From a virus, in IMG/VR virus record IMGVR_UViG_3300027908_000027, positions 1-61,019 of that record: a stretch of DNA of 61,019 nt; one strand, 5' to 3'. How positions within the stretch are numbered: position 1 is the stretch's first letter; every line of letters starts with the position of its first letter. Under the pieces are notes generated by a model. The model had not been told where the DNA came from. It saw nothing but the letters and a program-made list of their open reading frames with translations, and made no database searches. Below are positions 4,126 to 57,845 of the stretch, in pieces. The position numbers were made by a program, and so were the translations under genes.

Positions 4126-4153
4126 GACAGCACCGCACGAGTGAACAGACCGG

Positions 4154-4977: not shown

Positions 4978-4983
4978 GCACTG

Positions 4984-5013
4984 ATTATGACTTTTTGTCT
5001 GAGTCAGTTCCAA
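4984..5013 (-). promoter_or_regulatory. PRM-like promoter predicting a leaderless repressor mRNA
   Basis: Minus strand TTGGAA (5013-5008), 18-nt spacer, CATAAT (4989-4984), then 6 nt to ATG 4977. No SD is present. The palindrome CTGAGTCAG (4999-5007) lies in the spacer. Confidence 0.45.
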
Positions 5014-6855: not shown

Positions 6856-7235
6856 CCGAGACGTTCGGGAAACGGTTGCGGCGTCTAAGGCAGGCAAATC
6901 GCTTTACTACTCGCGATATGGCGCAGTTTAGTGGCGTTACCCACGCGTCCATTGTTCGCATTGAGAACGGCGAACATAAGCCGCGGTGCGATTCTCTTCC
7001 ACCGATGGCCGAGGCGCTGGGCGTGTCGATCGATTACCTATTGACCGGACGCGATGCAGACGCGGCGCTGTGGCGCGCAATCGGGACCCAGGCGCCGCAA
7101 AGCGCGATGGTCGCGCTTGCGCCATCGCAAGCCACTGCAATGCGCAAGTGCTTGCGTTGTCAGGGGAATTTTAAGTCATCTGGATTCGGTAATCGGGTGT
7201 GTTCCGGCTGCCGAGATGTGGAGCGCTGGCGTTGA
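6852..7235 (+). CDS. XRE-family HTH regulator with C-terminal zinc ribbon
   Basis: FGKRLRRLRQANRFTTRDMAQFSGVTHASIVRIENGEHKP is an HTH_3 motif. C-terminus CLRCQ...CSGC. ATGA overlap with the upstream gene. Confidence 0.75.
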   Translation: MTETFGKRLRRLRQANRFTTRDMAQFSGVTHASIVRIENGEHKPRCDSLPPMAEALGVSIDYLLTGRDADAALWRAIGTQAPQSAMVALAPSQATAMRKCLRCQGNFKSSGFGNRVCSGCRDVERWR

Positions 7236-27769: not shown

Positions 27770-29724
27770 AGCGACTGCTGGCAGCATTGCTGGGGAGCTT
27801 GTGGGCCGTTTCTGCTTTTGCTCAGTCATCTCCTGGTTTTGTCCAGGGGCAAATTCCAAGCGCGCCGCAGTGGAACGGGTATTTCACCGGGAAGCTGGAT
27901 GTTAACAACGGCTGGGCTACAGGGCTGACGCTGAATGGTGGCGCGCTCAGTGGGTCTTTATCGGGAACGCCGACGATTACTGGATCGTGGTTATTTAATG
28001 CTGCGCCTAACCTTGCCGCAGGCGCGACGTTGAGCGGCACGCTAGCGGGTAGCCCTACAGCAAGCGGTTCTTGGAAGTTTGCGAACCCGCTAGCAATCGG
28101 CATCTCCGGCACCAACAACACATTGACCGTTACGCCGGGGCTAGGTCCGACCCAGCCGATTGATCTGACGCAGAGCGGGACTGGAGGTGTTGTTATCGCG
28201 CCGGAGCTGTTCCTGACTGGCGCGGGCACGGGGCTGTTGGTGACGAATGCGACAACATTGAGCGGAGGTGGTGCCTTCAGCGGCACGTTCTCTGGCAACC
28301 ACACCTATTCGGGTGTCGTCACGTTTTCCGGTGGGGTCGGCGGTACGCTGGCGGGAAACATTGTCGAGGTGAACAGCATCAACACCTACGGCAATACGAT
28401 CACGTTGTCTGGCTCGACTGTCCCGACCTACATGGGGAAATATGTAGCCAATTGGGCTGGGACATCGACGGTTGCTGGCAATACCAGCCTAGCGGCGTTC
28501 AACATCGGCACCGCGTCAGACAATGCAGCGATTGCGAATGGAACGCGTAATGAACTGCTGATCACCGGGAACTATGGCGGCGGGACCTTCGACGGATTCC
28601 GCCAAGGCGTCATGGTGCAGATGAACTTTAACACCGCATCGACTCTATCGAGTTCAACTGGAGGCGCAGGCGGCCTGGAATCCAAGGTTGTTCCGAGCGC
28701 TAATTTCGGAGGTTCGTCAGCGAGCAATCTGAAGGGGGCATTCTTCGGGGCTAATCCATGGGCCGATTGCAAAACAGGCGCGACGTTCCTGTCTCAGTGC
28801 GTCGGCACAGAAATCGACGTTGCTCTCCAGACGGGAGCGAGCGCGGGCAATGTCACTGGGTTGCAGGTTGTTCTTACATCCGACCACGCGACACACGGAA
28901 TCTTTGCGGATAACGGCTATGCGCTGGTGGCGCAGTCCGCCGCTACGGCCGGTCTCCGCAAGGGGTTTGTTATTGGCTCGTACCAAGCCACATGGCCGAT
29001 AGACCCCAATGGGTATCTGTATCCGATCGAGACCAGCAGCAACTACAGCGTGAACCCAGATTTAGCGGCTGGTGGTAACGATTATCTTCAGGTCACGTTT
29101 AACGGTTCAGGCGCGAACGGTGGGAATTTCGCCTTTCGCACACAGGGTGCGTCCAGCAGCGTGTCAGCGACGGCAATTGATGGCCTCGGCGCGCTCAAGC
29201 TTGGCTCGGCTTATTTGAATCCATCGTCAGCATCGACGCTAACGCTCGACACCGGCTTATTTGCCTTCAATGGGATTTCCTCGGTCGTCAGTGGGGGCAC
29301 GAACTTCACGACTGGCGATCTTGTGGACGATGGTTATGGAAATATCTTTTCGGTCACGGCGTCTGCTGGTGTCGTCTCGTCTCTTGCCCTGAAGTATCGG
29401 GCGGAAGGGCGCACTTCGGCTCCAGCGGTTTCTTCCTTGGCGTTCAACACTCTCATGAACACGGCCAATGGCACGACGCGGGGCTCTGGCCTGACTGTGA
29501 CGGAGAACGCTTGGACCCAACAAGGTACGACGCTGAACTTTGGTACGACGACAGCCACCACGCTCAATATAGGCCGTAGCGCGGGGAGCCTTGGCTTCTA
29601 CGGAGCCACGGCAATCGTAAAGGCGACACCAACCGGTGCATGCGCAGGCAACACTGGATGTCAAGCGCTGCGTGACGCGCTGGGCAATCTGGGGCTTATT
29701 AACACCGGGAGCATCACGAATTGA
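27766..29724 (+). CDS. Tail fibre-like protein with signal-peptide-like N-terminus
   Basis: MKRLLAALLGSLWAVSAFA/QSS, then GFVQGQIPSAPQWNGYFTGKLDVNNG (fibre N-terminal type motif). GTGA overlap with the upstream gene. Confidence 0.6.
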   Translation: MKRLLAALLGSLWAVSAFAQSSPGFVQGQIPSAPQWNGYFTGKLDVNNGWATGLTLNGGALSGSLSGTPTITGSWLFNAAPNLAAGATLSGTLAGSPTASGSWKFANPLAIGISGTNNTLTVTPGLGPTQPIDLTQSGTGGVVIAPELFLTGAGTGLLVTNATTLSGGGAFSGTFSGNHTYSGVVTFSGGVGGTLAGNIVEVNSINTYGNTITLSGSTVPTYMGKYVANWAGTSTVAGNTSLAAFNIGTASDNAAIANGTRNELLITGNYGGGTFDGFRQGVMVQMNFNTASTLSSSTGGAGGLESKVVPSANFGGSSASNLKGAFFGANPWADCKTGATFLSQCVGTEIDVALQTGASAGNVTGLQVVLTSDHATHGIFADNGYALVAQSAATAGLRKGFVIGSYQATWPIDPNGYLYPIETSSNYSVNPDLAAGGNDYLQVTFNGSGANGGNFAFRTQGASSSVSATAIDGLGALKLGSAYLNPSSASTLTLDTGLFAFNGISSVVSGGTNFTTGDLVDDGYGNIFSVTASAGVVSSLALKYRAEGRTSAPAVSSLAFNTLMNTANGTTRGSGLTVTENAWTQQGTTLNFGTTTATTLNIGRSAGSLGFYGATAIVKATPTGACAGNTGCQALRDALGNLGLINTGSITN

Positions 29725-32534: not shown

Positions 32535-34054
32535 GCGGCACAACGGGACTCAATCCGGCGATCTCGCTGCAAGCTGGCGCTCAGTTGCAGCAGCAGCAGC
32601 AGCAGCAAAACCCGCTCCAAACGTTCGGGCAGGTTTTGCAGACGAAGAACGCGCTGAACCAGCTGCAGTTATTCCCTGGCCAGATGCAGCAGCAGCAGCT
32701 TGCCATCCAGGGGCAGGATCTAGCTAACCAGATGGCGCAGTTGCAGCAGCATCAGCAGCGGCTAACTTACTTTGCGGGGTTGATGCTGCCTGAGCTGGTG
32801 GACGCAAACGGCCAGCCGACGACTGGTGTTGCGGGGAAGGATATTGCCAAGTCTTTGGCGACTGCCGTGTCGGACGGATACCTACAGCCGAGTGAAGCGG
32901 TGCAACTGCAAACGAGCCTTCCGGGTGGCGCTCAAGACGATCCGGTGGCGAATCGCAGGTGGGTGCTTCAGCACTTTGCGGCCAATCAGGTGGCTGGTGG
33001 GCATATCAATGAGATTTTGGGGGCGCTAGGACGCTCTCCGTCCACCGTTGCTACAGGCGGCGGCACAATAGCCGGGTCTACAGCTGGTCCGCTTGCGCAA
33101 GGCGCCGGCTCCTTTCAGCCGCAGAGTTACGTTCCGAACACCGTTGGACCCGGGCAAGCGGCTGCGCCAGAGACCAGGATTGGTCCAGACGGGAAGCCTA
33201 TTATTGCGCCAGCCGGTGCTTATATGCCGCCGAATCTTGTGTCGCCGCAGGGTGTGCAGCAGCTTACACCACAGTCTCAGGGTCTAGGTGGCGCACAGGC
33301 GCCTGGGGCTGCGCCCCCCGGCACTCAATTGCCGCTTCCCAGTCCGGCTGCTCCGCCACGCTTGCCTGGTGCTGGGGGCGCCCCGATGGCTGGAATGCCG
33401 GTTGGAACGCCGGAATATATGGCAGCCACTGCTGGCGATGCACGCTCCGCCAACCAGCGTGCAGCGACATTTGCCAGTGATATGTTCCCGCTCACTCAGG
33501 CGCAGCAAGCATTGGCTAATGCGCCAACTGGCAAGGGCTCGCAGGCCGCGCACGATGTCAGTTCGTATCTGAATACCTTTGCACCTGAATGGCTAAACAA
33601 GGCGCTGTCGTTCGTCTCTCCGGTTATGACGAAGGACGAGGTGGCGGCCTATGATGAAGCCAAGAAGTACCTGACCCAAGGCCAGCTTGGCGTCTCCGGT
33701 GCAACACGAAGCAACGAGGGGCTATCCACAGCCGGCGCCGCAAGCCCGAGCACGCAGATTTCGAAGGAAGCGGCACAACTTGTGCTCAAGGGCATGATTG
33801 GTCTGCGACGAATGGAACAAGAAGGAACGCTGGAATTTAACAACAGCGGCCTACCGCCAGCCGACTACGGCAAATTTTCAGCGAACTTTGCTACCAAGGC
33901 CGATCCGCGCGTTTACACATTTGACCAATATACGCCTCAGCAGCGAAGCGATGTTCTCGCGTCCATCAAAGATCCGCAGAAGCGCACGCAGTTCATGGCT
34001 CAGGTTGAGCGCGCAGAGCAAAACGGCATTCTGTCTCCGCCCAATGGCCCTTGA
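32531..34054 (+). CDS. Ejection/internal virion protein 2 (Gln/Pro-rich)
   Basis: Track ORF; ATGA overlap; poly-Q start (QQQQQQNPLQ); Pro/Ala-rich centre. Confidence 0.55.
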   Translation: MSGTTGLNPAISLQAGAQLQQQQQQQNPLQTFGQVLQTKNALNQLQLFPGQMQQQQLAIQGQDLANQMAQLQQHQQRLTYFAGLMLPELVDANGQPTTGVAGKDIAKSLATAVSDGYLQPSEAVQLQTSLPGGAQDDPVANRRWVLQHFAANQVAGGHINEILGALGRSPSTVATGGGTIAGSTAGPLAQGAGSFQPQSYVPNTVGPGQAAAPETRIGPDGKPIIAPAGAYMPPNLVSPQGVQQLTPQSQGLGGAQAPGAAPPGTQLPLPSPAAPPRLPGAGGAPMAGMPVGTPEYMAATAGDARSANQRAATFASDMFPLTQAQQALANAPTGKGSQAAHDVSSYLNTFAPEWLNKALSFVSPVMTKDEVAAYDEAKKYLTQGQLGVSGATRSNEGLSTAGAASPSTQISKEAAQLVLKGMIGLRRMEQEGTLEFNNSGLPPADYGKFSANFATKADPRVYTFDQYTPQQRSDVLASIKDPQKRTQFMAQVERAEQNGILSPPNGP

Positions 34055-36438
34055 TGGCGTCTCCTCAGCAACAGCAGTTTGTGCAGACCTACGGCCCGAT
34101 CGCGCAGGATATTTCCAAGGCGACGGGACTAGATCCGTCTGTCGTGCTTGGACAAATAGCGCAGGAGACAGGCTGGGGCACGCATCTGGCTGGGGGTGGC
34201 AGCAATGCGTTCGGCATTTCCAAACCTGGCACGGACAGCCCAGCGTCGTATCCGTCCGTGGGCGCAAGTGGTCAAGCTTACGTCGATCTCATCAATCGGC
34301 GTTACCGGGATGCGGCATTGCAGTCTACGCCGGAAGCGCAGGCGCGCTCGATTGCGGCCGCAGGCTACAATACCAATCCAGCCTATGCGCCAGCCGTGGC
34401 TGACAACGCAGCAACTGTTCGGAGCATCACGCAATCACAGCAAGCGTCGGATGATTTCAACGCTCGCTGGGGCATCTCGGCGCCAGCGAATGATAAGGCG
34501 GCTCCTGCTGCACCAGCTTCACCGCCGGATGAGTCATCCTTCACGCAGCGTTGGGGCGTCGCGCCGTCTGCAACGACAGCAACGCCATCTGCCGCGCAGA
34601 CTCCTGCCGCAGCACCAACTCCGGCACCGACTACCGCCGCTGCGCCAACTTCTTCAGGGCCAGACTACACGGGATGGGATAATCCCTATGGTCCTCCCGC
34701 GCCAGTTGATCCGAACAACCGTAATCCACTGACGTTCGGTGGTCTGCGCAACATCCTGGCTCCTGCGCCAAACACGATTTACGGCAACGTTCTCCCCATC
34801 GCTACAGATACCAAGACGGGCCAAATGCGCGCCGCGCTCCCTATGGGAATGCGCGACTTCGCAGAGGGCGTTGTGGACCTGATGCAAGGCCCGCAGACTG
34901 GTCAAGTGACGCCGCGCGCCACCATGGCGTTGGCGGGGCTTGTGCCAGGTCTCATGGCGTCGCCTGCGGCACACACGGGCTTGCCTATCGCATTGGCCAG
35001 TCGGGAAGCCCCGGCTGCTGTGGAGGCTCCTGCCGCGGCTCCGCTGACAGCGCCGAATCCGCTAGCCACAGACCGACCGGCCTTTATCCCGCCCAATGCA
35101 GCTGCGCCATCCAATCCATTGGCCGCTCAAGTCACGACACCAGCTGCAAATCCTCTTTCTAACGCGCCGGCTGCCGGTTCTGCTGCGCCAGCAGCTGCAG
35201 CGACTCCGGCAGCTCTGTCGGCGCGAGAAGCCGCTGAATACGCGGCCATTCCTGAAAGCCTTCCGCCAGCGCCTAAGATTCCGCCACTCACGCAGGGTTC
35301 TGCTGACGCACGAGCTGATCAGCTTATCCAACACTTCGCCGCGCGTAATGGCGCGCCTCCTGATCAGGATTTGGTGCCTGGATTTGTTCCAACGCTAGCA
35401 CAGCGCACGAACGACCCTGGGATTGCGACACTTGAGCGCGGCGTTCAGGCGGCTAATCCCGGCGCTCTGGATCTTCGCAAGGAGGCCAATCAAGCGGCTA
35501 TTCGCGACTTCACCAGTTCACTTGTCGGAACGCCAGAAGACATTGCAGCAGCTCAAGCAGAACGTGAGCGAGTTACGGCGCCCATGCGCGACGCGGCATT
35601 TGCAAACAAGACTGATGTGGATGCTTCGCCTATTGAAACATCAATCCAGCAGACCCTAGCTGGTCCGGACGGCAAGCGTGCAGCGGTTCGTAAGACGCTG
35701 AATGATGTGCAGGCGTCGCTTCACGTAGGGCAAGATATGGACGCTCCGTTGGAGACCGACCCAGAACAGCTCTATGGCGTCCGCAAGCACATCAATGATC
35801 TTTTATCGCCGGCTGCTCAACGAGATAATCCAGAGCTACAGCGCGCCGCCTCTAGTCTATCCGACGTGAAGAACCAATTGGACGACGTGATCGAGGCTGG
35901 AGCGCCAGGGTTCAAGGATTATGTGTCGCAGTATGCGAATCTTTCGCGTCCGATTGACGAAAAGCAGTACCTTCAGGGTTTGAATTTGACGGATCAGGCC
36001 GGAAATGTAACTGGCGCCAAGATCGATTCCGCTTTGAAGGCCATTGCAAAGCAGCAGAACGCGACGGGCAGCAATAAGGCCATGTCGATAAGTGACGATA
36101 CGCTGAATGGCCTTCAGAAGCTACGCAACACGCTACAAGTGGCGCGCTTTTCAGATACTGCTGGCAAGCCGTTGGGCAGCAACACATTCCAGAACCTGGC
36201 CACCAACTCTACGGTAGGGGCTGTGGCTGGTAATCCCCTCATCCACCTCGGGGTGACGGGTATGGGGTCGCTTGTCGGTGGCGTGCCTGGTGCTCTGATC
36301 GGGGCTGGCACGCAGATGGCGGCTCGGGGGATTACCAACAACGCAGAATCAATGGTGCGCCGCGCAATGATTGAGCGGCTGCTTAATCTGCAAGGTAAAG
36401 GTGAAGCCGCTCTCGGCGGCGGCGCACGGACGCCATGA
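34051..36438 (+). CDS. Ejection protein 3 with N-terminal glucosaminidase/lysozyme-like murein hydrolase domain
   Basis: VLGQIAQETGWGTHLAGGGSNAFGISK resembles the FlgJ-type glucosaminidase motif (ETGWG...N.FGIK). 795 aa. The C-terminus has hydrophobic Gly-rich segments. Confidence 0.7.
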   Translation: MMASPQQQQFVQTYGPIAQDISKATGLDPSVVLGQIAQETGWGTHLAGGGSNAFGISKPGTDSPASYPSVGASGQAYVDLINRRYRDAALQSTPEAQARSIAAAGYNTNPAYAPAVADNAATVRSITQSQQASDDFNARWGISAPANDKAAPAAPASPPDESSFTQRWGVAPSATTATPSAAQTPAAAPTPAPTTAAAPTSSGPDYTGWDNPYGPPAPVDPNNRNPLTFGGLRNILAPAPNTIYGNVLPIATDTKTGQMRAALPMGMRDFAEGVVDLMQGPQTGQVTPRATMALAGLVPGLMASPAAHTGLPIALASREAPAAVEAPAAAPLTAPNPLATDRPAFIPPNAAAPSNPLAAQVTTPAANPLSNAPAAGSAAPAAAATPAALSAREAAEYAAIPESLPPAPKIPPLTQGSADARADQLIQHFAARNGAPPDQDLVPGFVPTLAQRTNDPGIATLERGVQAANPGALDLRKEANQAAIRDFTSSLVGTPEDIAAAQAERERVTAPMRDAAFANKTDVDASPIETSIQQTLAGPDGKRAAVRKTLNDVQASLHVGQDMDAPLETDPEQLYGVRKHINDLLSPAAQRDNPELQRAASSLSDVKNQLDDVIEAGAPGFKDYVSQYANLSRPIDEKQYLQGLNLTDQAGNVTGAKIDSALKAIAKQQNATGSNKAMSISDDTLNGLQKLRNTLQVARFSDTAGKPLGSNTFQNLATNSTVGAVAGNPLIHLGVTGMGSLVGGVPGALIGAGTQMAARGITNNAESMVRRAMIERLLNLQGKGEAALGGGARTP

Positions 36439-36667: not shown

Positions 36668-36686
36668 AGGATTTTAGTCCTTAAAG

Positions 36687-36734
36687 ATGGCTTCCGCGCC
36701 TATCCTACCACTTCCGCGCGCCGTTTTCTACGGG
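36687..36734 (+). pseudogene. Fossil 5' end (16 codons) of a tailspike gene
   Basis: MASAPILPLPRAVFYG versus the intact tailspike N-terminus MALASILPMPRAVFYD (37419): 11/16 identical residues with many synonymous differences. Similarity is lost after codon 16, and the region is antisense to the HNH-like gene's 3' end. Confidence 0.55.
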
Positions 36735-37388
36735 AGCGCTAGAGACGCTCTTTTGGAGCGCGATCTGGTCGATGGCGTCTTGCAAAGAAATGCCGCGCCT
36801 CGTCGCCCTATCGGGCGGCGTGCTGGGGTCAACCCCAAGCCGTTTGGATGCCTCTCTGAGAGATATCGTCTCTCCCGCCAAATTAACGAAACGTGTCGTT
36901 CGCTTATTCAGGCCCTGAATAGCAGCTGTGGCCCATCGGCAATTGCTAGGTTCGTAGCCCTTAGAATTATCGATCCGGTCAAGAGTGGTTCCTTGAGGGC
37001 GCGGGCCCATGTCGGTGACAAAAAGAACAAAGTCTTCCCAGCGTGCGCAAACAGTGATTCCTCTGTCACGATAAACGCGCGCCACCTTGGGGCGGGGGTC
37101 GACGACTCTTTCTCGCATCGCCTGCCACGATCTATAAGTCGGGGTGCGAGTCATTCCGTGCGTTGTATGGTCTGTCTCGGCCGCTACCTCTCTGTGGAAA
37201 CAGCCACAAGACGTGGTGTTGCCGCTGCGCATCGAGGAGAGCGGAACAATAAGTTCCGTACCGCAATCGCATTTTACACAGAAGCATCTCTGAGTCTGCC
37301 CAGACGGAGAAGTGTGCTTTTGGGCCTCTGAAACTATTACCAGTCGGCCGTAACGGTCTCCGGCATTTACTAGAACTTTCGCTACCAC
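36705..37388 (-). CDS. HNH-like/homing-endonuclease-like DNA-binding protein, antisense cassette gene 1
   Basis: YGRLVIVSE...CFCVKCDCGTELIVPLSSMRSGNTTSCGC (Zn-ribbon), TYRSWQAMRERV, RGITVCARWEDFVLFVTDMGPRP, LDRIDNSKGYEPSNCRWAT. This ORF type recurs in phages and is usually annotated as HNH/homing endonuclease. GTG start with AGAGGA SD. Confidence 0.55.
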   Translation of the reverse strand: MVAKVLVNAGDRYGRLVIVSEAQKHTSPSGQTQRCFCVKCDCGTELIVPLSSMRSGNTTSCGCFHREVAAETDHTTHGMTRTPTYRSWQAMRERVVDPRPKVARVYRDRGITVCARWEDFVLFVTDMGPRPQGTTLDRIDNSKGYEPSNCRWATAAIQGLNKRTTRFVNLAGETISLREASKRLGVDPSTPPDRATRRGISLQDAIDQIALQKSVSSAPVENGARKW

Positions 37389-39422: not shown

Positions 39423-40562
39423 ATGAATTGGAGAAATGGAATGCGCTGGTTTTTGGCGGCGCTTGCGTGCGTCATTGCGATGGGCATCAGCAATGCCCAC
39501 GCGCAAGGCGCGCAAAAGATCACGACTTGCGGAACTGGCGCGCCTCCAGCGGGGCTTTCGCCGCTTTACATGGATGCGAATGGCAACCTGTGTGTATCGA
39601 GTGGAGGGGGAGGAGGTGGCAATGTCACTGTCGTAGCGCCTATCGGCTCTAAGAATACTGCGGCATCTGTCGGGGTGGCGATTGCGACGGATCAGGTGGC
39701 CATTCCGACCAATTCCACGATCGTGGCCCCGCTCGGGCAGACTACATCATCCGGCTCGCTCCCTGTTGTCCTTCCAAGCGACATGGGCGCCTTGGCGGTT
39801 AAGCAGCCGGATGTGACATCAACCGGGAACACCATCAACTCGGCCTCTACCTCAAACGGCTATGCTATTACGCTCGGCAACGGCGTTCAGACTGTTGGGT
39901 TCAGCGTTACTGGGTTAACGGCTTCTGGCGCCACTCTTACCATTCAGGGATCGGCGGACGGGGGTACCACATGGACGATGCCTGTGGTTGGCTTCGCCGC
40001 ATCAAGTCCTCAATCCGCTGGGTTTACAACCCTTACAACCGATCAGGGATTCACAGTTAATACCGGCGGCCTCACGAATGTAAGGCTGCAAGTTACTTCG
40101 ACCGGAAGCGGCACGATCACCGTGGCGAGCGTTGCCACTGTTTCTAATTCTTCGGTTGTGGTGGCGCCGTCAACGGTAGCTGATCCGTGCGCGAGCGTTA
40201 ACACAAAGTCCACAGCCAGCTTTTCATCCAGTACAAGTGGCGGTTCAATTGTCACTGCTGTTTCGAGCAAGAAAATCTACGTCTGTCAGGTAACGGTTGT
40301 CACCTCGACTGCCGCAGCGGTGAGCTTTGAAGAGGGCACTGGATCAAGTGTCTGCACTGGCGGCACGCCAGCCGCAGACTGGTTGAATACTGGCACAACG
40401 GCGGCGAATGGCGCGTCCTTCGGAGCCAATGGCGGTGTAAGTGCCGGGTCAGGTTCTGGCACGGTGTTCCATACTGCGACGGCAAACCAAAACTTATGTC
40501 TGCTGTTCACTACCACGAATACGCCCACCGTCGTGGCGTCTGTCAGCTACGTCCAACAGTGA
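39423..40562 (+). CDS. Secreted beta-rich protein 1 (signal peptide)
   Basis: (MNWRNG)MRWFLAALACVIAMGISNAHA/QGA. The second ATG (39441) has GGAG 7 nt upstream. Thr/Ser/Gly-rich with paired Cys residues. Confidence 0.6.
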   Translation: MNWRNGMRWFLAALACVIAMGISNAHAQGAQKITTCGTGAPPAGLSPLYMDANGNLCVSSGGGGGGNVTVVAPIGSKNTAASVGVAIATDQVAIPTNSTIVAPLGQTTSSGSLPVVLPSDMGALAVKQPDVTSTGNTINSASTSNGYAITLGNGVQTVGFSVTGLTASGATLTIQGSADGGTTWTMPVVGFAASSPQSAGFTTLTTDQGFTVNTGGLTNVRLQVTSTGSGTITVASVATVSNSSVVVAPSTVADPCASVNTKSTASFSSSTSGGSIVTAVSSKKIYVCQVTVVTSTAAAVSFEEGTGSSVCTGGTPAADWLNTGTTAANGASFGANGGVSAGSGSGTVFHTATANQNLCLLFTTTNTPTVVASVSYVQQ

Positions 40563-41476
40563 CCCGCCTTTTCGTAATCCTTGCGCTCCTTCTGGGCGCG
40601 TCGCCGTCATACGCGCTGCCTGGAGATATGATGTTGCTGGGGGTTTCAGCCCCAGCCGCAGGGGCGACATACACGGGTGTTGGCGATGTGGTGGCTTTCA
40701 CGGTCTATTACTCGTGCACGTGGGCCTACAAAGCGACATACGCCGCAGCCACTGGTAAGCTCTGCGGGATCACCCGCGCATCAGATAGCGAAACCTGTGA
40801 TCTGCTGGCGGCGACCACCGGCGGGGAGGGGCTGACTGCCAACTGCTCCGGCGCCGATAACGGCAAGCCACTCGCCACATTCCTCACGGCGACCACTGGG
40901 ACATGGACGAAAGCCTATAATCAGGTGGCGAACGGCACTTTGGACCTACCAGCTTCGGCTACCCAGCCGACAATTGTGCTGAATTGTTTGGGCAGCCTGA
41001 CCTGTGTACAGGTGAGTGCGAATGGCGTCAATTTCGCGTCCACCACGAACATTACCCCTTCAAACGGACAGGGGACCATGCTCGGGTACAGCAACCGAGT
41101 GAGCGGAACCGGCGTATCAGCGGACGTTGAGGACAATGCCGCTGGTGGCCTTAGTGAACTCCGGCGCACCACCGGGACAGGCAACTCATGCACCCTCGCC
41201 GGCTCAAGCGGGACCTTCAACGCAACCTGTTCCGACAACGCTTGGCATGCCCTGCTTAGCGGCACTGGGTCTGGCACGAATAACAGCCTCATCAGCGTGG
41301 ACGGCACCGAGACTCCGGGAACCGTCACCGGCAACACTTCGGCGGGGCATGTCGAGGTAGCGATCGGGGCGAACTCCACCACGTTCAAGTGGATTGAGGC
41401 CGGGGTGATTGATGGCAGCGTGGTCAATTCCACCGTCCGCGCCGCGCTGATAGCAAACATGCAGGCGAGGAACTGA
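40559..41476 (+). CDS. Secreted beta-rich protein 2 (signal peptide)
   Basis: GTG (Val22 of track ORF 40496..41476) overlaps the upstream TGA. VTRLFVILALLLGASPSYA/LPG. Confidence 0.55.
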   Translation: MTRLFVILALLLGASPSYALPGDMMLLGVSAPAAGATYTGVGDVVAFTVYYSCTWAYKATYAAATGKLCGITRASDSETCDLLAATTGGEGLTANCSGADNGKPLATFLTATTGTWTKAYNQVANGTLDLPASATQPTIVLNCLGSLTCVQVSANGVNFASTTNITPSNGQGTMLGYSNRVSGTGVSADVEDNAAGGLSELRRTTGTGNSCTLAGSSGTFNATCSDNAWHALLSGTGSGTNNSLISVDGTETPGTVTGNTSAGHVEVAIGANSTTFKWIEAGVIDGSVVNSTVRAALIANMQARN

Positions 41477-41478
41477 GC

Positions 41479-44400
41479 ATGAAGCGGATTCTCGCAGCTA
41501 CGCTGGCCCTGCTCATGGCCCTGGAACCTGCTGCATGGGCTCGGCCGGGGAGCGGGCCTGGTAGTGGAATTGTGCAGTCGGTTCAGATCACCGGTATCGC
41601 ACCGACACCTAACCCGTGCGCGGGGACTACCGCGTCTGCCCAAGGCGTTCCGGTCTGCTCACTGGCAGCGACCACGGCAAACGGACAGGCGCTGAACAAT
41701 CCGGTGTTCGTTCTGGTGAATGACGCCGGAACCGGGGTCACGCTGAGCGGCAGCACTCTCTCGGTCGGGTCCACGCCTCTTGTGTTGGGCTCGTACAGCC
41801 TCACCGTTTCGGTCACCGGATCGAACTGCACCGGCTGCACGCCAGCGCCGCAATACACCGTGCCACTTACGGTCTCGTCTACCGTCTCGATCACCGGTAT
41901 TAGCACCAGCCCAAGCCCAGTCACTACGACGGTGGGGACTGCACCGGGGACAATCATCGCAGCACTGACACCAACATCCAGCGGCGGCGCACTGACAGGC
42001 GCCACGATAGCCTGTGCGAACTGCCTCTCGAATGAGTTCCAGATAGGCGGCACCAACCCGTTCAACCTGGAGGTGGGCAGCGCCGGGGTCACTGCGGGTA
42101 CGCCAGCGCCGACATTCACGGTCACCGCGACGAATGCGACCAACAGCCCGCAGACCTATCCGATCACGGTGACGGTCAGCAGCGCCCCGATCAACCTTGT
42201 CAGCCCGGTGACCTGCACTGCCATCGCGACTGGGTGCAATGGCACGGTTGGGGATGCGCAGGCCACACAGCTTGGCACGCTGGTCCCCTCCCAGAGCGGC
42301 GGAAGCGCAGGAGCTATTACCTGCAACACCACCATGCCGAATAACGCCGGCGGCCGCTTCCAGATCACCGCAGGCTGTGTCCTGGAGGCGGGGGCGACGC
42401 CTTACACGGCCGGCTCCTACTCGGTAACCGCGGCATTCAGCGGAGCGTCCGCAAGCGCCAATCCGTACAACCTCAGTTTCTCCGTGGCCGTGAATCCATC
42501 GGGGAGCGTGTCGCAGGTTCAGGCGCGGACCCTGACCAACTTCGGCGGTTCGACGACTCCAGCGGGCTTCTGGCTGGACGTGGGTCAACCGTTTGCACAA
42601 GGGCAGGTCCCCGCCGGGGATGGCGTCCTGTGGAAGACCGGCGGCGGGACCACGATCAACTCGCAGTCCGACGATTGCTCGCATTGGCCGGATGGCAGCC
42701 TGCGGTTCTGCTCGTTCACTCTGCTGTATCCAACCGCTCTTGGGGTCAAAGCCCAAGACACGAATCTGGGGGCGTTCGATAACCCCGGAGCCGGTGCGAA
42801 CAACACCTGTTTCAGCGGCACGCCAACGACACTGATTACCAGCCATGACTTCCGGCTAGAGATTACTCCACCTGCTGCGACATTTACTGGCACGATCTCG
42901 AATGGAACGGTGGGGCAGGCTGGCACGACGCTGACGGTCGGCACGGTGACCAGTGGTACCATCGCGATCGGCCAAACGGTGTTTGGCGTCGGCATCACTG
43001 CGGGAACCACAATCACCGGAGGCAGCGGCACAAGCTGGACGGTCAGCGTTTCACAAAGCTACCAGTTCCAAGGCGCACCCGAACCGCTGGCCAGCGGGAC
43101 CGGCGGCACGACCTACACCATGAGCGCCAACAACGAGTTCACCAACGAGCCCACCACTCACGTCATCATGTATCGTAGTGGGCCAGAGGTTTGCTCGTAT
43201 GTGATCTCGGGGCTGTTCTGGGCCTCGAACACCTGGGGGGGCACCTTGATGCCGGGTAAGGCATGGGGTGCGCTCTACATCGATGCGCGGGTGGATGGAA
43301 CGTATCGCGTCTGGCCCAAGGTGTTCAACTGCCAGCCCATGTCTACATCAACCACCCAACAGGCATCCTGCCCCATCATCGGCTTTGCTCCTGATGCCAA
43401 CGGGGACGCCTACTCGATCAAAGATTACTCGCTGGGCACGCCAATCCTGATGGGGTGCGCGTACAGCGCATCTACAACCGTAACGGCAGCCTGCGTAAGC
43501 GGCGGCCACGCTACCTCCGGCCTGGGGGGCGTACTTGTCTACGGCTCAGCTATGGAAGCCCTCACGCCAGATGGGTGGCCATACGACAGTCAGGCCAGCG
43601 ACACGCATCAGGTCCTTCCAGCGTTCCCGCTTCTGGTCTCGGCCAACCCGCTAACCCGTGGCTGGTATGACGCAATGCTGTCCGAGAACATTGGTTATAC
43701 CGCTGGCGAACTCGCGGACATCTACGCATCGACATACACCGAGGGCTCTTACGGCCCGAACAACTGCGCAAGTTTCCAGACCGTTGGATGTGACTTCGGT
43801 TCAACCGGAGCGAGCGCCTTCATCGGCCTGATCTCGTTCGATTGGGCACAGTGCCTGCTTGCCGGTCAGAACACCTCAGCCGGGTGGCGGGTGTGCAACA
43901 ACGACCGCCAGCAAGCCCTGACGATGGATGCCGTCCAGATGAACTGGCGGGACCAACTGACCGGGCGTGAGGTCAACCTGAGTTCGGCCTACACCCCGCC
44001 GACTGGCACTATGAATACGTTCACCACCGGAGGGTGGGGAGGGCTGCCGTCGAGCGGTCAGATCACCTCAACATCCTGTGGCGGCATAGCGCAGTGCCAG
44101 ATTTCCAACCACCTTCAGACCATCAACCACCAGCCGAATTTCGCTGAGGGCCAGTGTATTCTGACCGGACAGCGGCCGATGTGCGATATGGTGATGGACC
44201 AGGCGAACCATGACATCGGAAGCCAGAACCAAGGCTTCCGCAATACCACCCTGAACAGCCACACGTATTCTGCCATCGCGCAGCTTGTCCCTCAGTTCAG
44301 ACAGAACGCTTGGCTGGAGCGGGACATCTCGAACGCCTACTGGCTCGCCCCAGACTTCCTGGTCGATCAGGTCACCGCGAACCCGCAGAAGGGGTATCTG

Positions 44401-45525
44401 GCGGCGCTGGTGACGGGCATCGAGGGCACGCTGGCCTACTACAACGACAACTGGTCACCGCCGCTGTACAACTCCGCCAACAACCCCCTTGGCATCGGGC
44501 CGACAGCAATCACCAGCGGGGTCACCACTGCCAGCTTGCCAGAGGCGATCTATTGGCAGGCCGGATACTGGATGAACGTCCTTTATCTCGATGCCGCTCG
44601 GGGCCTGTTCAATTCGACCAACTGCCGGAACGGTTCCTTCACCACGGCCGTGGCTTCTTGCAACATTCTGGTGAACTACGCGCACAACTTCTTTTACGGT
44701 GCTGCGGTCAATGGCTGCATGGCATTTGCCGCCGCAACCTATGCGCTCTCGACCACTACCGCAGCCAATCCGTACGCGGTCAACAACACAGGGATCTTGG
44801 CTCAGACGTTCTCTGATATGTACAGCGGCGATGTGGAATCGAACTCCGTTGATACCAACGGGTTTGCGCTAGGCACTCAGACGGCCGGAAGTACGATCAG
44901 CCTGACCTATTCGGGGGCGCCCGTTCCTGTGCCTCCGACAGTGGGCATGAACATCAACTTCGGCCGAGGTCAATCCTACACCAAGTCGGGGATCACCATT
45001 CCGGTTGGCGACACCGTGACCAGCGTGACGAGTTGCGGGTCCAATTGCTACACGCTGGGTCTTTCTGCTCCGATGACGGGGGGAACGATACCGACCGGCT
45101 TGGCATTCCTGTTCGTGACCTGGAACGCCGACTCCTGCTCGAACAATGGCTGTCAGCCGCCGATCATCCCATTCCCGCTGGTGAACGCGCTCTGTCCAAC
45201 TGAGGGGATGCTGGCGAATGCCAACATCTCCAGTCCCGGTTCAGTCCAGACCCACACGCTCTACTTCTACTCTGGGGCTATCGCGGGCGATCGGGTTGGA
45301 GAGCCATACGCAACCCAGGTCAGGACCTATTTCGAGAACTTCAGCCAGAGCCCGAACCCTGGAGGGGTAGTGAAAACCGGGCAGTGCGCCGGGGGTGTCG
45401 CGAATTGGGACGCGGCCAACACGTTCTGGCCTAGCGACGCACAGAACGCCAACCTGCCACAATGGCGCACGTATCCTGTAGGTGCGCCGCTCACGGTTGG
45501 CGGCGTATCTACGGGATGTAATTAG
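41479..45525 (+). CDS. Giant secreted protein (1348 aa): signal peptide, three Ig-like modules, large uncharacterised C-terminal region
   Basis: MKRILAATLALLMALEPAAWA/RPG. There are three modules of about 90-100 aa ending YSLTVSVTG / YPITVTVSS / YNLSFSVAV. About 1000 aa follow with no motif I recognise. Confidence 0.7.
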   Translation: MKRILAATLALLMALEPAAWARPGSGPGSGIVQSVQITGIAPTPNPCAGTTASAQGVPVCSLAATTANGQALNNPVFVLVNDAGTGVTLSGSTLSVGSTPLVLGSYSLTVSVTGSNCTGCTPAPQYTVPLTVSSTVSITGISTSPSPVTTTVGTAPGTIIAALTPTSSGGALTGATIACANCLSNEFQIGGTNPFNLEVGSAGVTAGTPAPTFTVTATNATNSPQTYPITVTVSSAPINLVSPVTCTAIATGCNGTVGDAQATQLGTLVPSQSGGSAGAITCNTTMPNNAGGRFQITAGCVLEAGATPYTAGSYSVTAAFSGASASANPYNLSFSVAVNPSGSVSQVQARTLTNFGGSTTPAGFWLDVGQPFAQGQVPAGDGVLWKTGGGTTINSQSDDCSHWPDGSLRFCSFTLLYPTALGVKAQDTNLGAFDNPGAGANNTCFSGTPTTLITSHDFRLEITPPAATFTGTISNGTVGQAGTTLTVGTVTSGTIAIGQTVFGVGITAGTTITGGSGTSWTVSVSQSYQFQGAPEPLASGTGGTTYTMSANNEFTNEPTTHVIMYRSGPEVCSYVISGLFWASNTWGGTLMPGKAWGALYIDARVDGTYRVWPKVFNCQPMSTSTTQQASCPIIGFAPDANGDAYSIKDYSLGTPILMGCAYSASTTVTAACVSGGHATSGLGGVLVYGSAMEALTPDGWPYDSQASDTHQVLPAFPLLVSANPLTRGWYDAMLSENIGYTAGELADIYASTYTEGSYGPNNCASFQTVGCDFGSTGASAFIGLISFDWAQCLLAGQNTSAGWRVCNNDRQQALTMDAVQMNWRDQLTGREVNLSSAYTPPTGTMNTFTTGGWGGLPSSGQITSTSCGGIAQCQISNHLQTINHQPNFAEGQCILTGQRPMCDMVMDQANHDIGSQNQGFRNTTLNSHTYSAIAQLVPQFRQNAWLERDISNAYWLAPDFLVDQVTANPQKGYLAALVTGIEGTLAYYNDNWSPPLYNSANNPLGIGPTAITSGVTTASLPEAIYWQAGYWMNVLYLDAARGLFNSTNCRNGSFTTAVASCNILVNYAHNFFYGAAVNGCMAFAAATYALSTTTAANPYAVNNTGILAQTFSDMYSGDVESNSVDTNGFALGTQTAGSTISLTYSGAPVPVPPTVGMNINFGRGQSYTKSGITIPVGDTVTSVTSCGSNCYTLGLSAPMTGGTIPTGLAFLFVTWNADSCSNNGCQPPIIPFPLVNALCPTEGMLANANISSPGSVQTHTLYFYSGAIAGDRVGEPYATQVRTYFENFSQSPNPGGVVKTGQCAGGVANWDAANTFWPSDAQNANLPQWRTYPVGAPLTVGGVSTGCN

Positions 45526-50325: not shown

Positions 50326-50877
50326 GTGAGTAAAACGAGAAGCGACGGCACACCGATCACCTTGGACTGGCTTCGTTCGGTTTCTATCCCAGAGCCAAAT
50401 AGTGGTTGTTGGCTCTGGGATCTATACGTTACCCATGACGGATACCCTCGCGTTCACACGGTCAGAGGACGACTTGGTTTGGCTCATCGCGAGTCATACA
50501 AGCTTGCTAAGGGCGCGATACCAGATGGCAGTCACATTGACCATCTGTGCCGAGTGCGGAGCTGCATAAATCCCGACCATTTAGAAATTGTCTCGCCAGC
50601 CGAAAATCGTCGCCGCAGCAGTTTAGATGCTCTCTTTAGGATGCCAACTCATTGTCGGAAGGGACATCCTTTTGGTCAGGATAACCCGCCGGGGAAACGA
50701 GGCGCTTGCAAAATTTGCAGATCACTAATCGTAAAGAAATGGAATGACATTCAAAACGGAGCCAGGAAAAAGAACTGGACCCCAGAGCAATTTTCCGCTC
50801 GTAGCAGAATAAATTGCGCCAGACTTTGGGGGAAAGAACCTGACCCAGCCGATCTCGCGCTAACTGGTATGAGATGA
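50326..50877 (+). CDS. HNH homing-endonuclease-type protein
   Basis: GCWLWDLYVTHDGYPRV...LAHRESYKLAKGAIPDGSHIDHLCRVRSCINPDHLEIVSPAENRRR. Lower-GC patch. GTG start. Confidence 0.75.
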   Translation: MSKTRSDGTPITLDWLRSVSIPEPNSGCWLWDLYVTHDGYPRVHTVRGRLGLAHRESYKLAKGAIPDGSHIDHLCRVRSCINPDHLEIVSPAENRRRSSLDALFRMPTHCRKGHPFGQDNPPGKRGACKICRSLIVKKWNDIQNGARKKNWTPEQFSARSRINCARLWGKEPDPADLALTGMR

Positions 50878-51679: not shown

Positions 51680-52072
51680 ATGCGTAGGTTCAATCTCGCT
51701 TTTGCGTTGCTGGCATTCTTTGTTGGCAGCGCCGCACTGGCGCAAAGCGCGCCTCCGGTAACCGTCACCTTCACGTTCGCCGTTCCCTACACGGGCCTCA
51801 CGATGACGGGGACTGGCCCATGTTCTGGGACGCTCACCGGCACCCCGACGAATAACGTCGCTGGGCCGTTCTCCTGCGGTAGCCAGACCATCCCCGCTGG
51901 CACCGTGATCGCTACCATGTCGGTTGCCCCCACCGGCTGGGCCGGCGGCATCGGAACCTCCGGGACCGGTGCTGGATTGGTGACCGTGACGGGCAGCAGC
52001 CCCAACTATACCGTTACTACGGCACAGGCGGTGAGTTCTTCCTTCACCGTTGGTTTCCAGCCCACCCCATGA
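51680..52072 (+). CDS. Small secreted Thr/Gly-rich protein (signal peptide)
   Basis: Met34 of track ORF 51581..52072, SD AAAGGAA. MRRFNLAFALLAFFVGSAALA/QSA. Confidence 0.55.
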   Translation: MRRFNLAFALLAFFVGSAALAQSAPPVTVTFTFAVPYTGLTMTGTGPCSGTLTGTPTNNVAGPFSCGSQTIPAGTVIATMSVAPTGWAGGIGTSGTGAGLVTVTGSSPNYTVTTAQAVSSSFTVGFQPTP

Positions 52073-54054
52073 GATTTCTGCCGCTCCTCTTGGTGGCCCT
52101 CCTGGCATCATGCGGGGCGGCACCAATCACTGCGACGTTCGTGATATCCGGCCAAGGGACCGGCCCGGGCGCCTTGCTGACGCCCAGCCGTGACGCCAGC
52201 GCCAACTGGGCCAAGGCAGGTCTGCTGTCCATTGGCGGCATTCCCACCCGCACCACGCAATGCGGCCCCACGCTGTCTCCCAGCGGCGGGGACGATACCA
52301 GTGCCATACAGGCGGCCATCAACGCCTGCCCTGTGGGGCAAGTCGTGGTGCTCGGCGCGGGCACGTTCCTGGAATCGGGGCACGGGACCACTGCCCGGAT
52401 CAACAAAAGCATCTCCGTGCGTGGGCAGGGGCCGGGCGTGACCATCGTTCACTCGCCCAACGGGGCCGTGCTGAACAACGTCAACCCCGGCACGCACGTC
52501 AGCACGATATTCCAGCTCGGCGGCTCGGCTAGCGTGACGACGGTAGCGAACCTCACAGCAGATGGAGCGAAGGGTGCTAACTCAATTCAAGTCGCCTCCA
52601 CCAGTGGATTTTCGGTTGGCGGGCTCGTGCTCGTGGACGAACTGGCACTCGGAAAGGCCATGCCGGATTGTTGCTTCAACAACGGCACGGGCACCGTATG
52701 GGCAGAGCCTGATTATCGAGTTGAGTGGAACCAACACAGTCCTGCCGTCGCCTTTTTTGACAGCGCCTGTAACGGCTATGCAAATGCCAACAACTTCGCC
52801 TGCGGAACTAATGGTGACGAGTGTGCTTATTCGATCCGATGCGGCGGGGTCACAGAAGAGCTACATCTCATTACCGCCATCAGCGGCAACACGATCACCT
52901 TCGATTCCCCACTGACTATCTCCTATCGAGTAGCCAACACAGCGCAGGCTCACTCCTACGCCCCCGGAAACCTAGTCACCCAAGCCGGGCTGGAAAACCT
53001 CACCGTCTCGAATGGCGACGAGGGCAATATCGTGTTCTCGGCCTGTGTCTACTGCTGGGCACACAACGTCGAATCAACGCAATGGCTCAACGCTGGCGGT
53101 GTGGCGTTCTACCAAGCCGCTTTCCGGGATCAGGTAGACGGGTCGTGGGTGCATGACGCGGCGTGGCCAGTGAATGGCGGTGGTGGCTATGCGATCAATG
53201 CCACGTACGGAGCCTCAGAGTTCCTTGTCACAAACAACATCATCATGAAGGCCAACAAGGTTGACGTGGTTCGGGCGAGCGGATCTGGAGCCGTGTTCGG
53301 CTACAATTACATGGACGACGGCTACATCAACGGGGAGAACTCGTGGATTGAGACTGGGCCGAATGGCTCGCACCTGGCAGGCTCTCATCACGTTCTATTC
53401 GAAGGTAACCAGACCTGGAACGTTGACAGCGATTTTACCCACGGCTCGTCCACGCACAATACGTTCTTTCGGAACTGGATGACAGGGTTCCGCGCCCCGT
53501 TCACAGCCCTCAATGGTGCCACGATCAATGACCAGACGCAGACTGCGAATGGCCCTAAGCGCGCAATCGCAGATCACGCATACTCGTACTGGGATTCGTT
53601 CGTGGGGAATGTGGCCGGCACGCAGGGTCTGGTCAGTAACTGGACGCTCAGGTGCGAGGCCGGGAACGCGGACTCGGGGTGTGCTCCGGCAATCTACAAC
53701 CTCGGATGGAATGATACCTCCGTGGCCGGGAGCCTTGGGGATGCCAGCATGGCGATCGACTACCCCGCACTACCCACGAACACGATCACCGGGCCGGGGT
53801 GTCTGACCAGCGGGGAATCGTGCGCGCCGATCAGGGATGGGAACTTTGACTTCAAGACCAGCGCCATTCAGTGGGCGAGCAATGATACTGCCCATACGCT
53901 GCCCCCCAGCTTCTATCTCACAAGCGCGCCAGCGTTCTTCTCAGCCGGGAAGGGCTACGCTTGGCCGTGGGTTACGCCCAATGGGCCGACGCCACTGGCG
54001 ACGCTTCCAGCTAAGGCTCGATGGGACGCTGGTACGCCGTTTCAGCAGCCGTGA
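52069..54054 (+). CDS. Lipoprotein with right-handed beta-helix (pectate-lyase-like) glycan-degrading domain
   Basis: MRFLPLLLVALLASC (lipobox L-A-S-C). SGGDDTSAIQAAINACPVGQVVVLGAGTF is the same D-x-T-x-A-I-x-A-A-I start as the tailspike. ATGA overlap upstream. Confidence 0.65.
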   Translation: MRFLPLLLVALLASCGAAPITATFVISGQGTGPGALLTPSRDASANWAKAGLLSIGGIPTRTTQCGPTLSPSGGDDTSAIQAAINACPVGQVVVLGAGTFLESGHGTTARINKSISVRGQGPGVTIVHSPNGAVLNNVNPGTHVSTIFQLGGSASVTTVANLTADGAKGANSIQVASTSGFSVGGLVLVDELALGKAMPDCCFNNGTGTVWAEPDYRVEWNQHSPAVAFFDSACNGYANANNFACGTNGDECAYSIRCGGVTEELHLITAISGNTITFDSPLTISYRVANTAQAHSYAPGNLVTQAGLENLTVSNGDEGNIVFSACVYCWAHNVESTQWLNAGGVAFYQAAFRDQVDGSWVHDAAWPVNGGGGYAINATYGASEFLVTNNIIMKANKVDVVRASGSGAVFGYNYMDDGYINGENSWIETGPNGSHLAGSHHVLFEGNQTWNVDSDFTHGSSTHNTFFRNWMTGFRAPFTALNGATINDQTQTANGPKRAIADHAYSYWDSFVGNVAGTQGLVSNWTLRCEAGNADSGCAPAIYNLGWNDTSVAGSLGDASMAIDYPALPTNTITGPGCLTSGESCAPIRDGNFDFKTSAIQWASNDTAHTLPPSFYLTSAPAFFSAGKGYAWPWVTPNGPTPLATLPAKARWDAGTPFQQP

Positions 54055-57659: not shown

Positions 57660-57845
57660 AGGTTTGCCACTCCACTCGAAATGCCCCGTAAACGTGCGGT
57701 GGATAAACTTGGGGGTTGTCAGTCTAAGGCGCTGATTACCCACAAACGTGGCGCTCCCCTCAGCTCCACCACCGTCCCGCATAAGTCATTGAAAACTAAA
57801 CGGAAAATGGAAAGGTTTGTCACTTTCCTGGCTTAGGTTTGCCAC
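57660..57845. repeat. Three direct copies of AGGTTTG(C/T)CAC flanking or overlapping the int 3' end (candidate arm-type sites in attP)
   Basis: aggtttgccac at 57660-57670, aggtttgtcac at 57813-57823, aggtttgccac at 57835-57845. Confidence 0.45.
57790..57828 (-). terminator. Intrinsic terminator overlapping the int stop codon
   Basis: Minus-strand GGAAAG-ugacaaac-CUUUCC (57828-57809) is followed by AUUUUCCGUUUAGUUUUC. The loop contains the int UGA. Confidence 0.55.

Follow-up and report, generated by a model that had tools for sequence, protein, structure and literature searches.

A putatively exported three-gene cassette downstream of the tailspike gene in a P22-like soil podovirus

Introduction

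Phage depolymerases are usually viewed as virion-bound proteins or as cytoplasmic proteins that are released passively. The present analysis concerns three adjacent genes, designated P1, P2 and P3, that follow the tailspike gene in a virus sequence of 61,019 nucleotides (IMG/VR record IMGVR_UViG_3300027908_000027, positions 1–61,019; this whole stretch is referred to as the window) and whose products are predicted to carry signal peptides for the Sec pathway. Free forms of depolymerases that give plaque halos are known (PMC6116005), and the signals found on cellular homologues of phage glycanases are typically missing from the phage enzymes (PMC4595243). The trio resembles the phage depolymerases in being phage-encoded, in its position near a receptor-binding gene and in its glycan-enzyme-like architecture; moreover, signal-less relatives of P2 and of the P3 core are found in fibre modules. 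It differs in that the known enzymes are cytoplasmic and either virion-bound or released by lysis, whereas the trio is Sec-signalled, rich in cysteine and encoded by several genes. In addition, the secondary structure of the P3 model shows no evident β-helix, and there is no sequence link to the described depolymerase families.

Spanins, lambda Lom and Bor, and T5 Llp are examples of phage proteins that are exported. The Sec-signal endolysin Lys44 and the signal-arrest-release (SAR) endolysins (PMC6116005) and the T4 antiholin RI (PMC8385771) also belong to this group. These proteins have genuine export signals, and some of them are expressed late or are encoded beside tail genes, much as appears to be the case for the trio. 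They are, however, single and small, with roles in lysis, exclusion or the outer membrane; none forms a multi-domain trio of 0.3–1.3 thousand residues and none is homologous to P1–P3. A third group for comparison is that of the carbohydrate-active enzyme (CAZyme) genes of soil viruses and prophages, in which signal peptides were reported for 5% of 64,678 prophage CAZymes (PMC13507307). The soil phage origin, the CAZyme-like domains and the presence of signals in a minority are points of likeness, but those genes fall in recognised CAZy families and are scattered singly, whereas the trio lies outside curated families, appears as a syntenic late-operon cassette and is headed by a domain that does not look catalytic. 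Literature searches returned no description of a syntenic multi-gene exported late-operon cassette headed by a conserved domain. Exported phage proteins and free depolymerases are thus known already; what appears new, judged from sequence, is the conserved cassette with Sec or twin-arginine (Tat) signals. Our preferred reading, to which we assign a probability of about 55%, is that the three proteins are produced along with the late gene products, exported and stabilised by disulfides, and that as a non-virion module they bind or degrade glycans.

Results and Discussion

Gene layout and expression of the trio

The open reading frames (ORFs) of the region were re-derived, and the three linked plus-strand ORFs of the initial annotation were recovered with the same junctions and N-termini. 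The genes, the conserved domain of P1 and the flanking genes are as follows.

39441–40562, plus strand: P1, 373 amino acids
40155–40559, plus strand: C-terminal domain of P1, ~135 amino acids, four invariant cysteines, YVQQ end
40559–41476, plus strand: P2, 305 amino acids, GTG start
41479–45525, plus strand: P3, 1348 amino acids
37419–39416, plus strand: tailspike, pectate-lyase-like β-helix (Pfam PF12708 and tail-spike PHROGs), 24 nt before P1
45531–45776, plus strand: tail-anchored membrane protein, 81 amino acids, starting 5 nt past P3, without family match

The spacing from the tailspike through P1, P2 and P3 to the next gene is 24, −4, 2 and 5 nt, and the span of 6103 nt, or 10.0% of the window, was reproduced. 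The start previously given for P1, at 39423, is an in-frame ATG that yields the same signal peptide; the ATG at 39441 is nevertheless the better start, because GGAG lies 6 nt upstream of it and because the gene callers chose it. The GTG of P2 at 40559 does overlap the P1 stop codon as GTGA, and its use as a start is supported by P2 homologues, which begin directly with the signal. The 2-nt gap between the P2 stop and the P3 ATG likewise stands, and GAGGA precedes this ATG.

Expression of the trio with the late operon fits this layout, as the gaps are too short for a separate unit and no signal of one is present. A site scan, using a sigma-70 consensus that may not fit the host, yielded 6 promoter-like sites (4.2±1.9 expected) and 5 terminator-like sites (7.9±2.9 expected), and none of these bracketed the trio. 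The GC content is 0.60–0.62 in the trio, about 0.59 in the genome and 0.52 in the tailspike region. An autonomous moron unit was therefore rejected, given that the trio lacks promoter or terminator support of its own and has the GC content of the genome.

Export signals and cysteine content

Signal peptides were identified with a mechanical heuristic that looks for a charged n-region, an uncharged hydrophobic h-region and small residues at positions −3 and −1. A Sec (type I) signal was defined by a positive n-region, an uncharged h-region of 8–15 residues and small residues at −3/−1, all within the first ~35 amino acids.

P1, residues 1–21: Sec signal, MRWFLAALACVIAMGISNAHA/QGA
P2, residues 1–19: Sec signal, VTRLFVILALLLGASPSYA/LPG
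P3, residues 1–21: Sec signal, …EPAAWA/RPG

Five of the 86 non-nested ORFs of the window were positive in the screen (P1, P3, a 652-residue ORF at 27766–29724 and two lipobox proteins), as was P2 when read from its GTG start; P1, P2 (from the GTG) and P3 all display the type I pattern. The signals are retained among homologues, with positive scores for 38 of 47 relatives of P1, 9 of 11 of P2 and 10 of 12 close relatives of P3. Most of the negative ones result from gene calls truncated at the 5' end, as in P0055, where a signal lies ahead of the called start; the N-termini of P0012, P0027 and P0051 are signal-like yet miss the charge or start-site rule of the screen. For P3 the signal persists down to 33% identity in the mature part. 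Sec or twin-arginine signals are also present at equivalent positions of cassettes on related contigs (loci numbered L001 onwards), namely in proteins of 876 (L012/L019), 287 (L009), 687 (L027) and 643 residues (L030) and in a subtilisin (L002); a textbook twin-arginine signal from these contigs reads MLGKLSRRSFLLGSASALAISRADA. A hydrophobic structural helix would not account for Tat motifs at these positions.

The mature proteins contain 6 (P1), 8 (P2) and 36 (P3) cysteines, which are even numbers, mostly in close pairs, and amount to 1.9–2.7% of the residues. Elsewhere in the window, cysteine is absent from the ejection proteins and occurs 3–4 times in the portal and capsid proteins. In signal-less relatives of the P3 core, the cysteine density is about half as high. 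For P1, the conservation of the pairs that had been proposed is borne out by the four invariant cysteines in the C-terminal domain; many cysteines of P3 are invariant as well. The Sec signals noted earlier on all three proteins thus hold up on the screen, on their retention and on the Tat or Sec signals at equivalent positions. It is very unlikely that they are chance hydrophobic stretches, and the trio proteins are most likely exported by the host to an oxidising compartment. Genuine export would be the only economical reading, because the signals are conserved, have Tat equivalents and go together with paired cysteines.

The P1 C-terminal domain as constant head of runs of genes with export signals

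Following its signal, P1 consists of a glycine run, repeats of ~30 residues, a conserved middle β domain and the conserved C-terminal domain. In alignment A2, the latter shows 41–74% identity to 16 homologues; the sequences N-terminal to the domain in these proteins are unrelated and vary in length between ~30 and ~1000 residues. P1 had no match in Pfam, NCBIfam, PADLOC or the PDB sequences. On about 20 metagenomic or viral contigs, exported runs are consistently headed by a gene that encodes the P1 C-terminal domain; in all informative loci (L006, L007, L009, L010, L011, L012/L019, L015–L018, L021 and L030) it directly precedes 1–4 more signal-bearing genes. The full order of P1 C-terminal domain, P2 and P3 family is found in the window and in L007, where P2 is duplicated. 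L003 has a P1-like fragment followed by P2 and P3, although the gene calls are fragmentary, L001 has a divergent P1-like gene followed by P2 and P3, and L027 has a P2 to P3-like pair. Other members are a BNR-repeat Tat protein in the L012 cassette and, in L002, six exported proteins in a row, including the subtilisin with its Tat signal.

That the trio is always kept as a unit was rejected, as hhalign comparisons showed the genes that stand second and third in L006, L012 and L017 to have no relation to P2 and P3. Judging from these loci, the C-terminal domain of P1 alone is constant in the cassettes and the P2- and P3-type genes are replaceable, a point missed by the initial annotation. The backbones belong to different podoviruses, with P22-like and SU10-like portals or adaptors, and the sites vary: after the adaptor gene in L001, between capsid and tail-completion genes in L006, before the endolysin gene in L007 and after the ejection-protein genes in L027. 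The L007 cassette is in the same gene string as a Hydrolase_2 endolysin and small membrane proteins, and small membrane proteins also follow the cassette of L027. Upstream of the exported cassette, L007 encodes a protein of the Acb2/Tad1-hairpin family (6844–7251), a family of anti-CBASS/Thoeris sponges.

P2-like domains and P3-like cores occur without signals as well. The signal-less P3 core of L013, in a contig with a P22 portal, lies between collagen-like fibre genes and adjoins a β-helix gene, and signal-less P2 domains are contained in proteins of 788–1435 residues (L035–L038). For this reason the P2 and P3 families appear to be deployed in two modes, exported or signal-less, the latter presumably virion-associated or cytoplasmic.

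A close relative of the window phage, L014, shares 94% DNA identity with it through the ejection gene. Its tailspike has kept the N-terminal ~120 residues, while the C-terminal part is just 30–45% identical; the first ~100 residues of its P1 have also diverged, including an indel of one 29-residue repeat unit. From window position 39752 onward, the identity is again ~94% for DNA and ~100% for protein. The comparison with L014-type sequences reaches P1, since three independent assemblies (L025, L026, which equals L014, and a third JGI contig) end directly past this gene; probably they break there because the sequence beyond P1 is shared with co-occurring strains. The expectation that the trio would be found downstream of different tailspikes is therefore borne out in part: P1 is retained after the swapped tailspike in L014, but the trio is not always a unit (L006, L012, L017). 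The export of the proteins and their status as other than conventional virion parts, both proposed in the initial annotation, draw support from the conserved signals, the Tat neighbours, the paired cysteines of the signal-bearing forms and this retention in L014.

In the window, a remnant of ~65 bp (36670–36735) of the 5' end of an older tailspike gene is nearly identical to the start of the L014 tailspike. Next come an HNH endonuclease gene (36705–37388, minus strand), which is absent from L014, and then the present tailspike. The exchange of the tailspike appears connected with the insertion of a homing endonuclease.

No match to P1, P2, P3 or the 652-residue protein was found among 50,697 phage records (tblastn), and P1–P3 did not match the tail or fibre families of PHROG, Pfam and NCBIfam, so that the clear homology to tail-fibre families that would speak for fibres was not found there. 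The tailspike N-terminus has no similarity to P1–P3 by BLAST, and no virion-attachment domain is shared. The PADLOC defence models gave no match to P1–P3 at E≤0.01.

Domain similarities of P2 and P3

The family profile of P2 matches residues 22–87 of the GH54 arabinofuranosidase AbfB with an E-value of 3e-5; a weak match to neurexin LNS domains was also seen. The PF09206 cutoff is exceeded by three P2 homologues, over profile positions 14–96 (the N-terminal quarter) only, and P2 of the window itself has no Pfam match. PF09206 describes a catalytic β-sandwich of ~315 residues, and the P2-family alignment does not reach the catalytic region; the likeness to AbfB is thus confined to residues 22–87. 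We consider P2 a predicted β-sandwich of the concanavalin A (ConA)-like or GH54-N-like type with eight cysteines.

In P3 the following segments were distinguished.

41569–42486, plus strand: tandem β modules, residues ~31–336, period ~101 residues
42580–42720, plus strand: PcRGLX_1st domain (PF19501, RIFT barrel), residues 368–414, 24 bits against a cutoff of 22.1
43693–44745, plus strand: helix-rich core, residues ~739–1089, ~12 helices in the model

The three tandem modules of ~100 residues described previously were recognised again, with motif ends at residues 106, 227 and 330. The period of ~101 residues is apparent from the homologue P0005, which matches P3 twice in shifted register (35–235 and 136–487); a three-way alignment of the modules is weak. 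Their number is three in P3 of the window, about two in P0005 and about one in P0006, and a Pfam sequence scan returned no match for them, Ig-like or other. The PcRGLX_1st match recurs in 5 of 24 members of the P3 family (E≤0.05). The second and third PcRGLX domains had no Pfam match at E≤0.1, in P3 or in its family. Membership of P3 in PL26 was rejected, as the RIFT barrel alone matches and neither the fold nor the sequence resembles solved structures; the likeness to PcRGLX, the exo-rhamnogalacturonan lyase of PL26, is limited to residues 368–414 and its N-terminal RIFT barrel. For both PL26 and GH54, a single small domain is matched.

The family of the ~1000-residue core of P3 is small. A word-seeded search among 5.8 billion proteins found 6 clusters, and an exhaustive profile search among 1.84 billion representatives found 18 clusters at E≤1e-30 and 168 at E≤1e-3. 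Over 100 weak matches of the exhaustive search map to ~42880–43100 (residues ~467–540), where a widespread β domain of ~75 residues is inserted. This domain is 41–44% identical to one in phage 'pectate lyase superfamily' proteins of BFVD, and it is repeated in the P3 homologues P0005 and P0006.

An AF2 model of the core from five sequences was unusable (predicted local distance difference test, pLDDT, 26) and was discarded. The 24-sequence alignment gave a usable one (pLDDT 74; predicted template modelling score, pTM, 0.80), with a β-rich N-terminal part, ~12 helices (fragment residues 400–750) and a β-rich C-terminal part. Foldseek retrieved nothing from the PDB at E<1e-3, the best hit being a GH15-type dextran dextrinase at E 0.04, and a single match below 1e-3 from the viral library, an uncharacterised phage protein. 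The P3 profile had no match among the PDB sequences. In the helical part, H884, R921 and R941 are invariant, Y758, R810, W945, R948, D959 and R1041 are near-invariant, and the motif reads (N/S)-H-x-P … TGxEWWLD … RN. A His/Tyr/Arg/Asn set in an alpha/alpha toroid is reminiscent of the uronate lyases, which we take as a lead rather than as a test.

Overall, P1, P2 and P3 are, from the family searches, not placeable in any curated family. The suggestion that P3 is active on glycans gains weakly from the PcRGLX RIFT barrel just above the cutoff, the helix-rich model, the GH54/ConA-like character of P2 and the signal-less P3-core relatives among fibre genes; on the other hand, no enzyme family has been established.

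Proposed function and alternative explanations

What the comparisons above support directly is the presence and conservation of the signals, the synteny of the cassette, the cysteine pattern and the similarities at domain level. From these we infer export itself, the late timing, the glycan substrate and the biological role of the trio. P1, P2 and P3 would each be made with a cleavable Sec signal and be translocated into the host periplasm, with cleavage after AHA (P1), SYA (P2) and AWA (P3), and would be stabilised there by disulfide bonds. P3 would act as the effector, a depolymerase-type glycan-active enzyme (β, helical toroid-like core, β) carried by three Ig-like modules that serve as spacers. 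P2 would be the ConA/GH54-like β-sandwich, either carbohydrate-binding or a glycosidase, and P1 a β-rich binding or targeting protein, the C-terminal domain of which would be the common head of the cassette. Following release by lysis or by host secretion, the trio would degrade or bind polysaccharide in the envelope or matrix of the infected cell and of cells nearby, and the clearing of polysaccharide would aid escape and spread of the progeny and reduce re-adsorption to debris. Since tailed-phage assembly is cytoplasmic, we regard the trio as probably not part of the virion.

A number of observations weigh against this reading. Enzyme family membership is not established (PcRGLX domains 2 and 3, Foldseek against the PDB, and the PDB sequences for P3 and P1 were all negative), and the signal prediction rests on a heuristic screen. 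In a diderm, Sec alone would reach the periplasm only, so that the proteins may not get outside before lysis. The cassette lies inside structural operons, and the N-terminal ~100 residues of P1 diverge together with the specificity domain of the tailspike; this combination could point to a virion-linked or receptor-linked role instead. Finally, the phage is temperate, so that the trio may be expressed from the prophage.

The last point leads to the explanation that the genes are lysogenic-conversion cargo, that is, auxiliary metabolic genes of the soil-virus CAZyme kind, in which secreted enzymes expressed from the prophage would degrade plant or microbial polymers for the nutrition of the lysogen. 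Apart from the integrase and the RstR-like repressor of the phage, this would accommodate the weak similarities to enzymes acting on pectin side chains (the PL26 RIFT barrel and GH54) and the subtilisin or BNR-repeat proteins of other cassettes. A tail-adjacent site is also classical for morons, for example lambda lom and P22 gtr. Signal-bearing prophage CAZymes are on record, as mentioned in the Introduction (PMC13507307). However, the trio has neither a promoter- or terminator-like signature nor a compositional difference and is tightly coupled to structural genes; the same gene order recurs inside structural operons of very different backbones, which is unusual for sporadic cargo; and what appears to be real lysogeny-side cargo, the PEP-CTERM protein and a lipoprotein, is encoded elsewhere on the other strand. 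We consider this explanation unlikely. A function in exclusion, in which the periplasmic proteins would prevent superinfection by stripping, masking or stopping the export of a polysaccharide receptor, or by blocking incoming ejection machinery, would agree with the predicted periplasmic location, with the position next to the tailspike and with the finding that the P1 N-terminus and the specificity domain of the tailspike have diverged together. T4 Sp and Imm and T5 Llp would be precedents. The exported or periplasmic lysis-control proteins, such as RI of T4, are others (PMC8385771). Yet no PADLOC defence model was matched, 6.1 kb with a 1348-residue multi-domain protein is far bigger than the known exclusion proteins, and the change in tailspike specificity has left the rest of P1 (and, by extension, P2 and P3) unaltered, which disfavours a target identical to the receptor. 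Such a function is therefore quite unlikely in our view.

It is distinctly improbable that the trio is a lysis or egress accessory, with exported enzymes pre-positioned in the periplasm to weaken an outer envelope layer such as a capsule, an S-layer or an outer-membrane-linked polymer. The gene string that L007 shares with its endolysin, the small membrane proteins after the L027 cassette and the lack of a recognisable endolysin, holin and spanin set in the window would fit such a role, for which Sec-exported endolysins provide a precedent (PMC6116005); but the trio has no similarity to peptidoglycan hydrolases or spanins, the position of the cassette relative to lysis genes varies, and the protein sizes are atypical for lysis factors. 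Unusual virion fibres, with hydrophobic N-termini that are not used for export or with proteins that join the particles after lysis, would explain the structural-operon sites of L006 (capsid and tail-completion genes) and L001 (after the adaptor), the fibre-like composition of the trio (Thr/Ser/Gly/Asn-rich with few charges), the signal-less P2- and P3-family domains in large fibre-like proteins, and the fourth signal-bearing protein, of 652 residues, after the head-closure gene. This is highly improbable, because structural helices cannot explain the Tat signals of equivalent genes, the cleavage sites are canonical AXA, the trio shares no attachment domain with the tailspike N-terminus and matches no tail PHROG, and tailed phages are established to assemble in the cytoplasm. 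An equally speculative proposal, with about as little going for it as the lysis accessory, is a class of machinery that has not been recognised before, in which the P1 C-terminal domain would act as a targeting or anchoring domain leading interchangeable Sec/Tat-exported enzymes. These would undergo oxidative folding in the periplasm and then either form a phage-built enzyme complex at the host surface or be picked up by particles after lysis; in the latter case, a tailed-phage virion would be matured or decorated outside the cytoplasm.

If the preferred reading of an exported glycan-active module is true of the conserved cassettes, which lie in line with structural genes in many uncultured soil phages, phages would routinely use host export and oxidative folding to deploy free envelope- or matrix-active proteins, and 'CAZyme' genes of soil viruses would be read as tools for egress and spread rather than as metabolic help. 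The trio would add three uncharacterised families, including a very rare enzyme-like core of ~1000 residues, and would offer stable, secretion-competent candidate enzymes for the degradation of biofilms or extracellular polysaccharides.

The phage genome, its host and other predicted exported proteins

The genome-wide context of the trio is given by the following features.

1–61,019: P22-like podovirus, ~61 kb, temperate, of soil origin
57820–58866, minus strand: integrase, temperate marker
4621–5013, minus strand: RstR/cI-like repressor, temperate marker

The genome is probably complete, since the same genome of ~61 kb was assembled independently from several soil metagenomes (61,047, 61,061 and 61,533 bp). 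Its P22-like gene set comprises the large terminase, portal, major head protein, head-closure protein, ejection proteins and tailspike, and the portal is most similar (40% identity) to that of Pseudomonas phage PAE2. The classification as temperate follows from the integrase and repressor genes.

The initial annotation missed predicted exported proteins beyond the trio, namely the 652-residue ORF at 27766, two lipoproteins and a PEP-CTERM protein. The last of these (3616–4230, minus strand) ends in VPEP, a hydrophobic helix and RRRKA, a PEP-CTERM/exosortase sorting signal that scores above the TIGR02595 cutoff. In exosortase systems, a PEP-CTERM signal implies a diderm host associated with exopolysaccharide production. 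A PEP-CTERM protein borne by the phage therefore points to an exosortase-bearing diderm, which is probably the host. A scan of 185,579 species genomes for the P1 C-terminal domain gave a single 3.5-kb contig binned to Ca. Sulfotelmatobacter, which is too weak to name a host.

The 652-residue protein (27766–29724) is rich in Gly, Thr and Ser and begins with a Sec signal of canonical type (MKRLLAALLGSLWAVSAFA/QSS); within the structural operon, its start and the stop of the head-closure gene overlap, and it belongs to no Pfam, PHROG or NCBIfam family. A predicted lipoprotein of 175 residues (1877–2404, minus strand; LSGC lipobox) is located on the lysogeny side, without family match, and no i-spanin-like partner was recognised next to it. 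The other predicted lipoprotein, of 661 residues (52069–54054; lipobox LLASC, 15 cysteines), lies in the early/replication region and has a faint, sub-threshold match to the BT3328 hyaluronate endo-lyase family (E 4e-4).

The whole window has no recognisable set of endolysin, holin or spanin genes, and the sole peptidoglycan-hydrolase domain is a glucosaminidase at the N-terminus of one ejection protein, of 795 residues (34051–36438). A second HNH endonuclease is encoded at 50326–50877 (PHROG match). The 240-residue ORF directly before the major head gene (20347–21069, minus strand) has an N-terminus (…GIYTITNSVTGRVYVGQT…) that resembles the GIY-YIG motif; if it is a GIY-YIG protein, the genome would carry several homing endonucleases.

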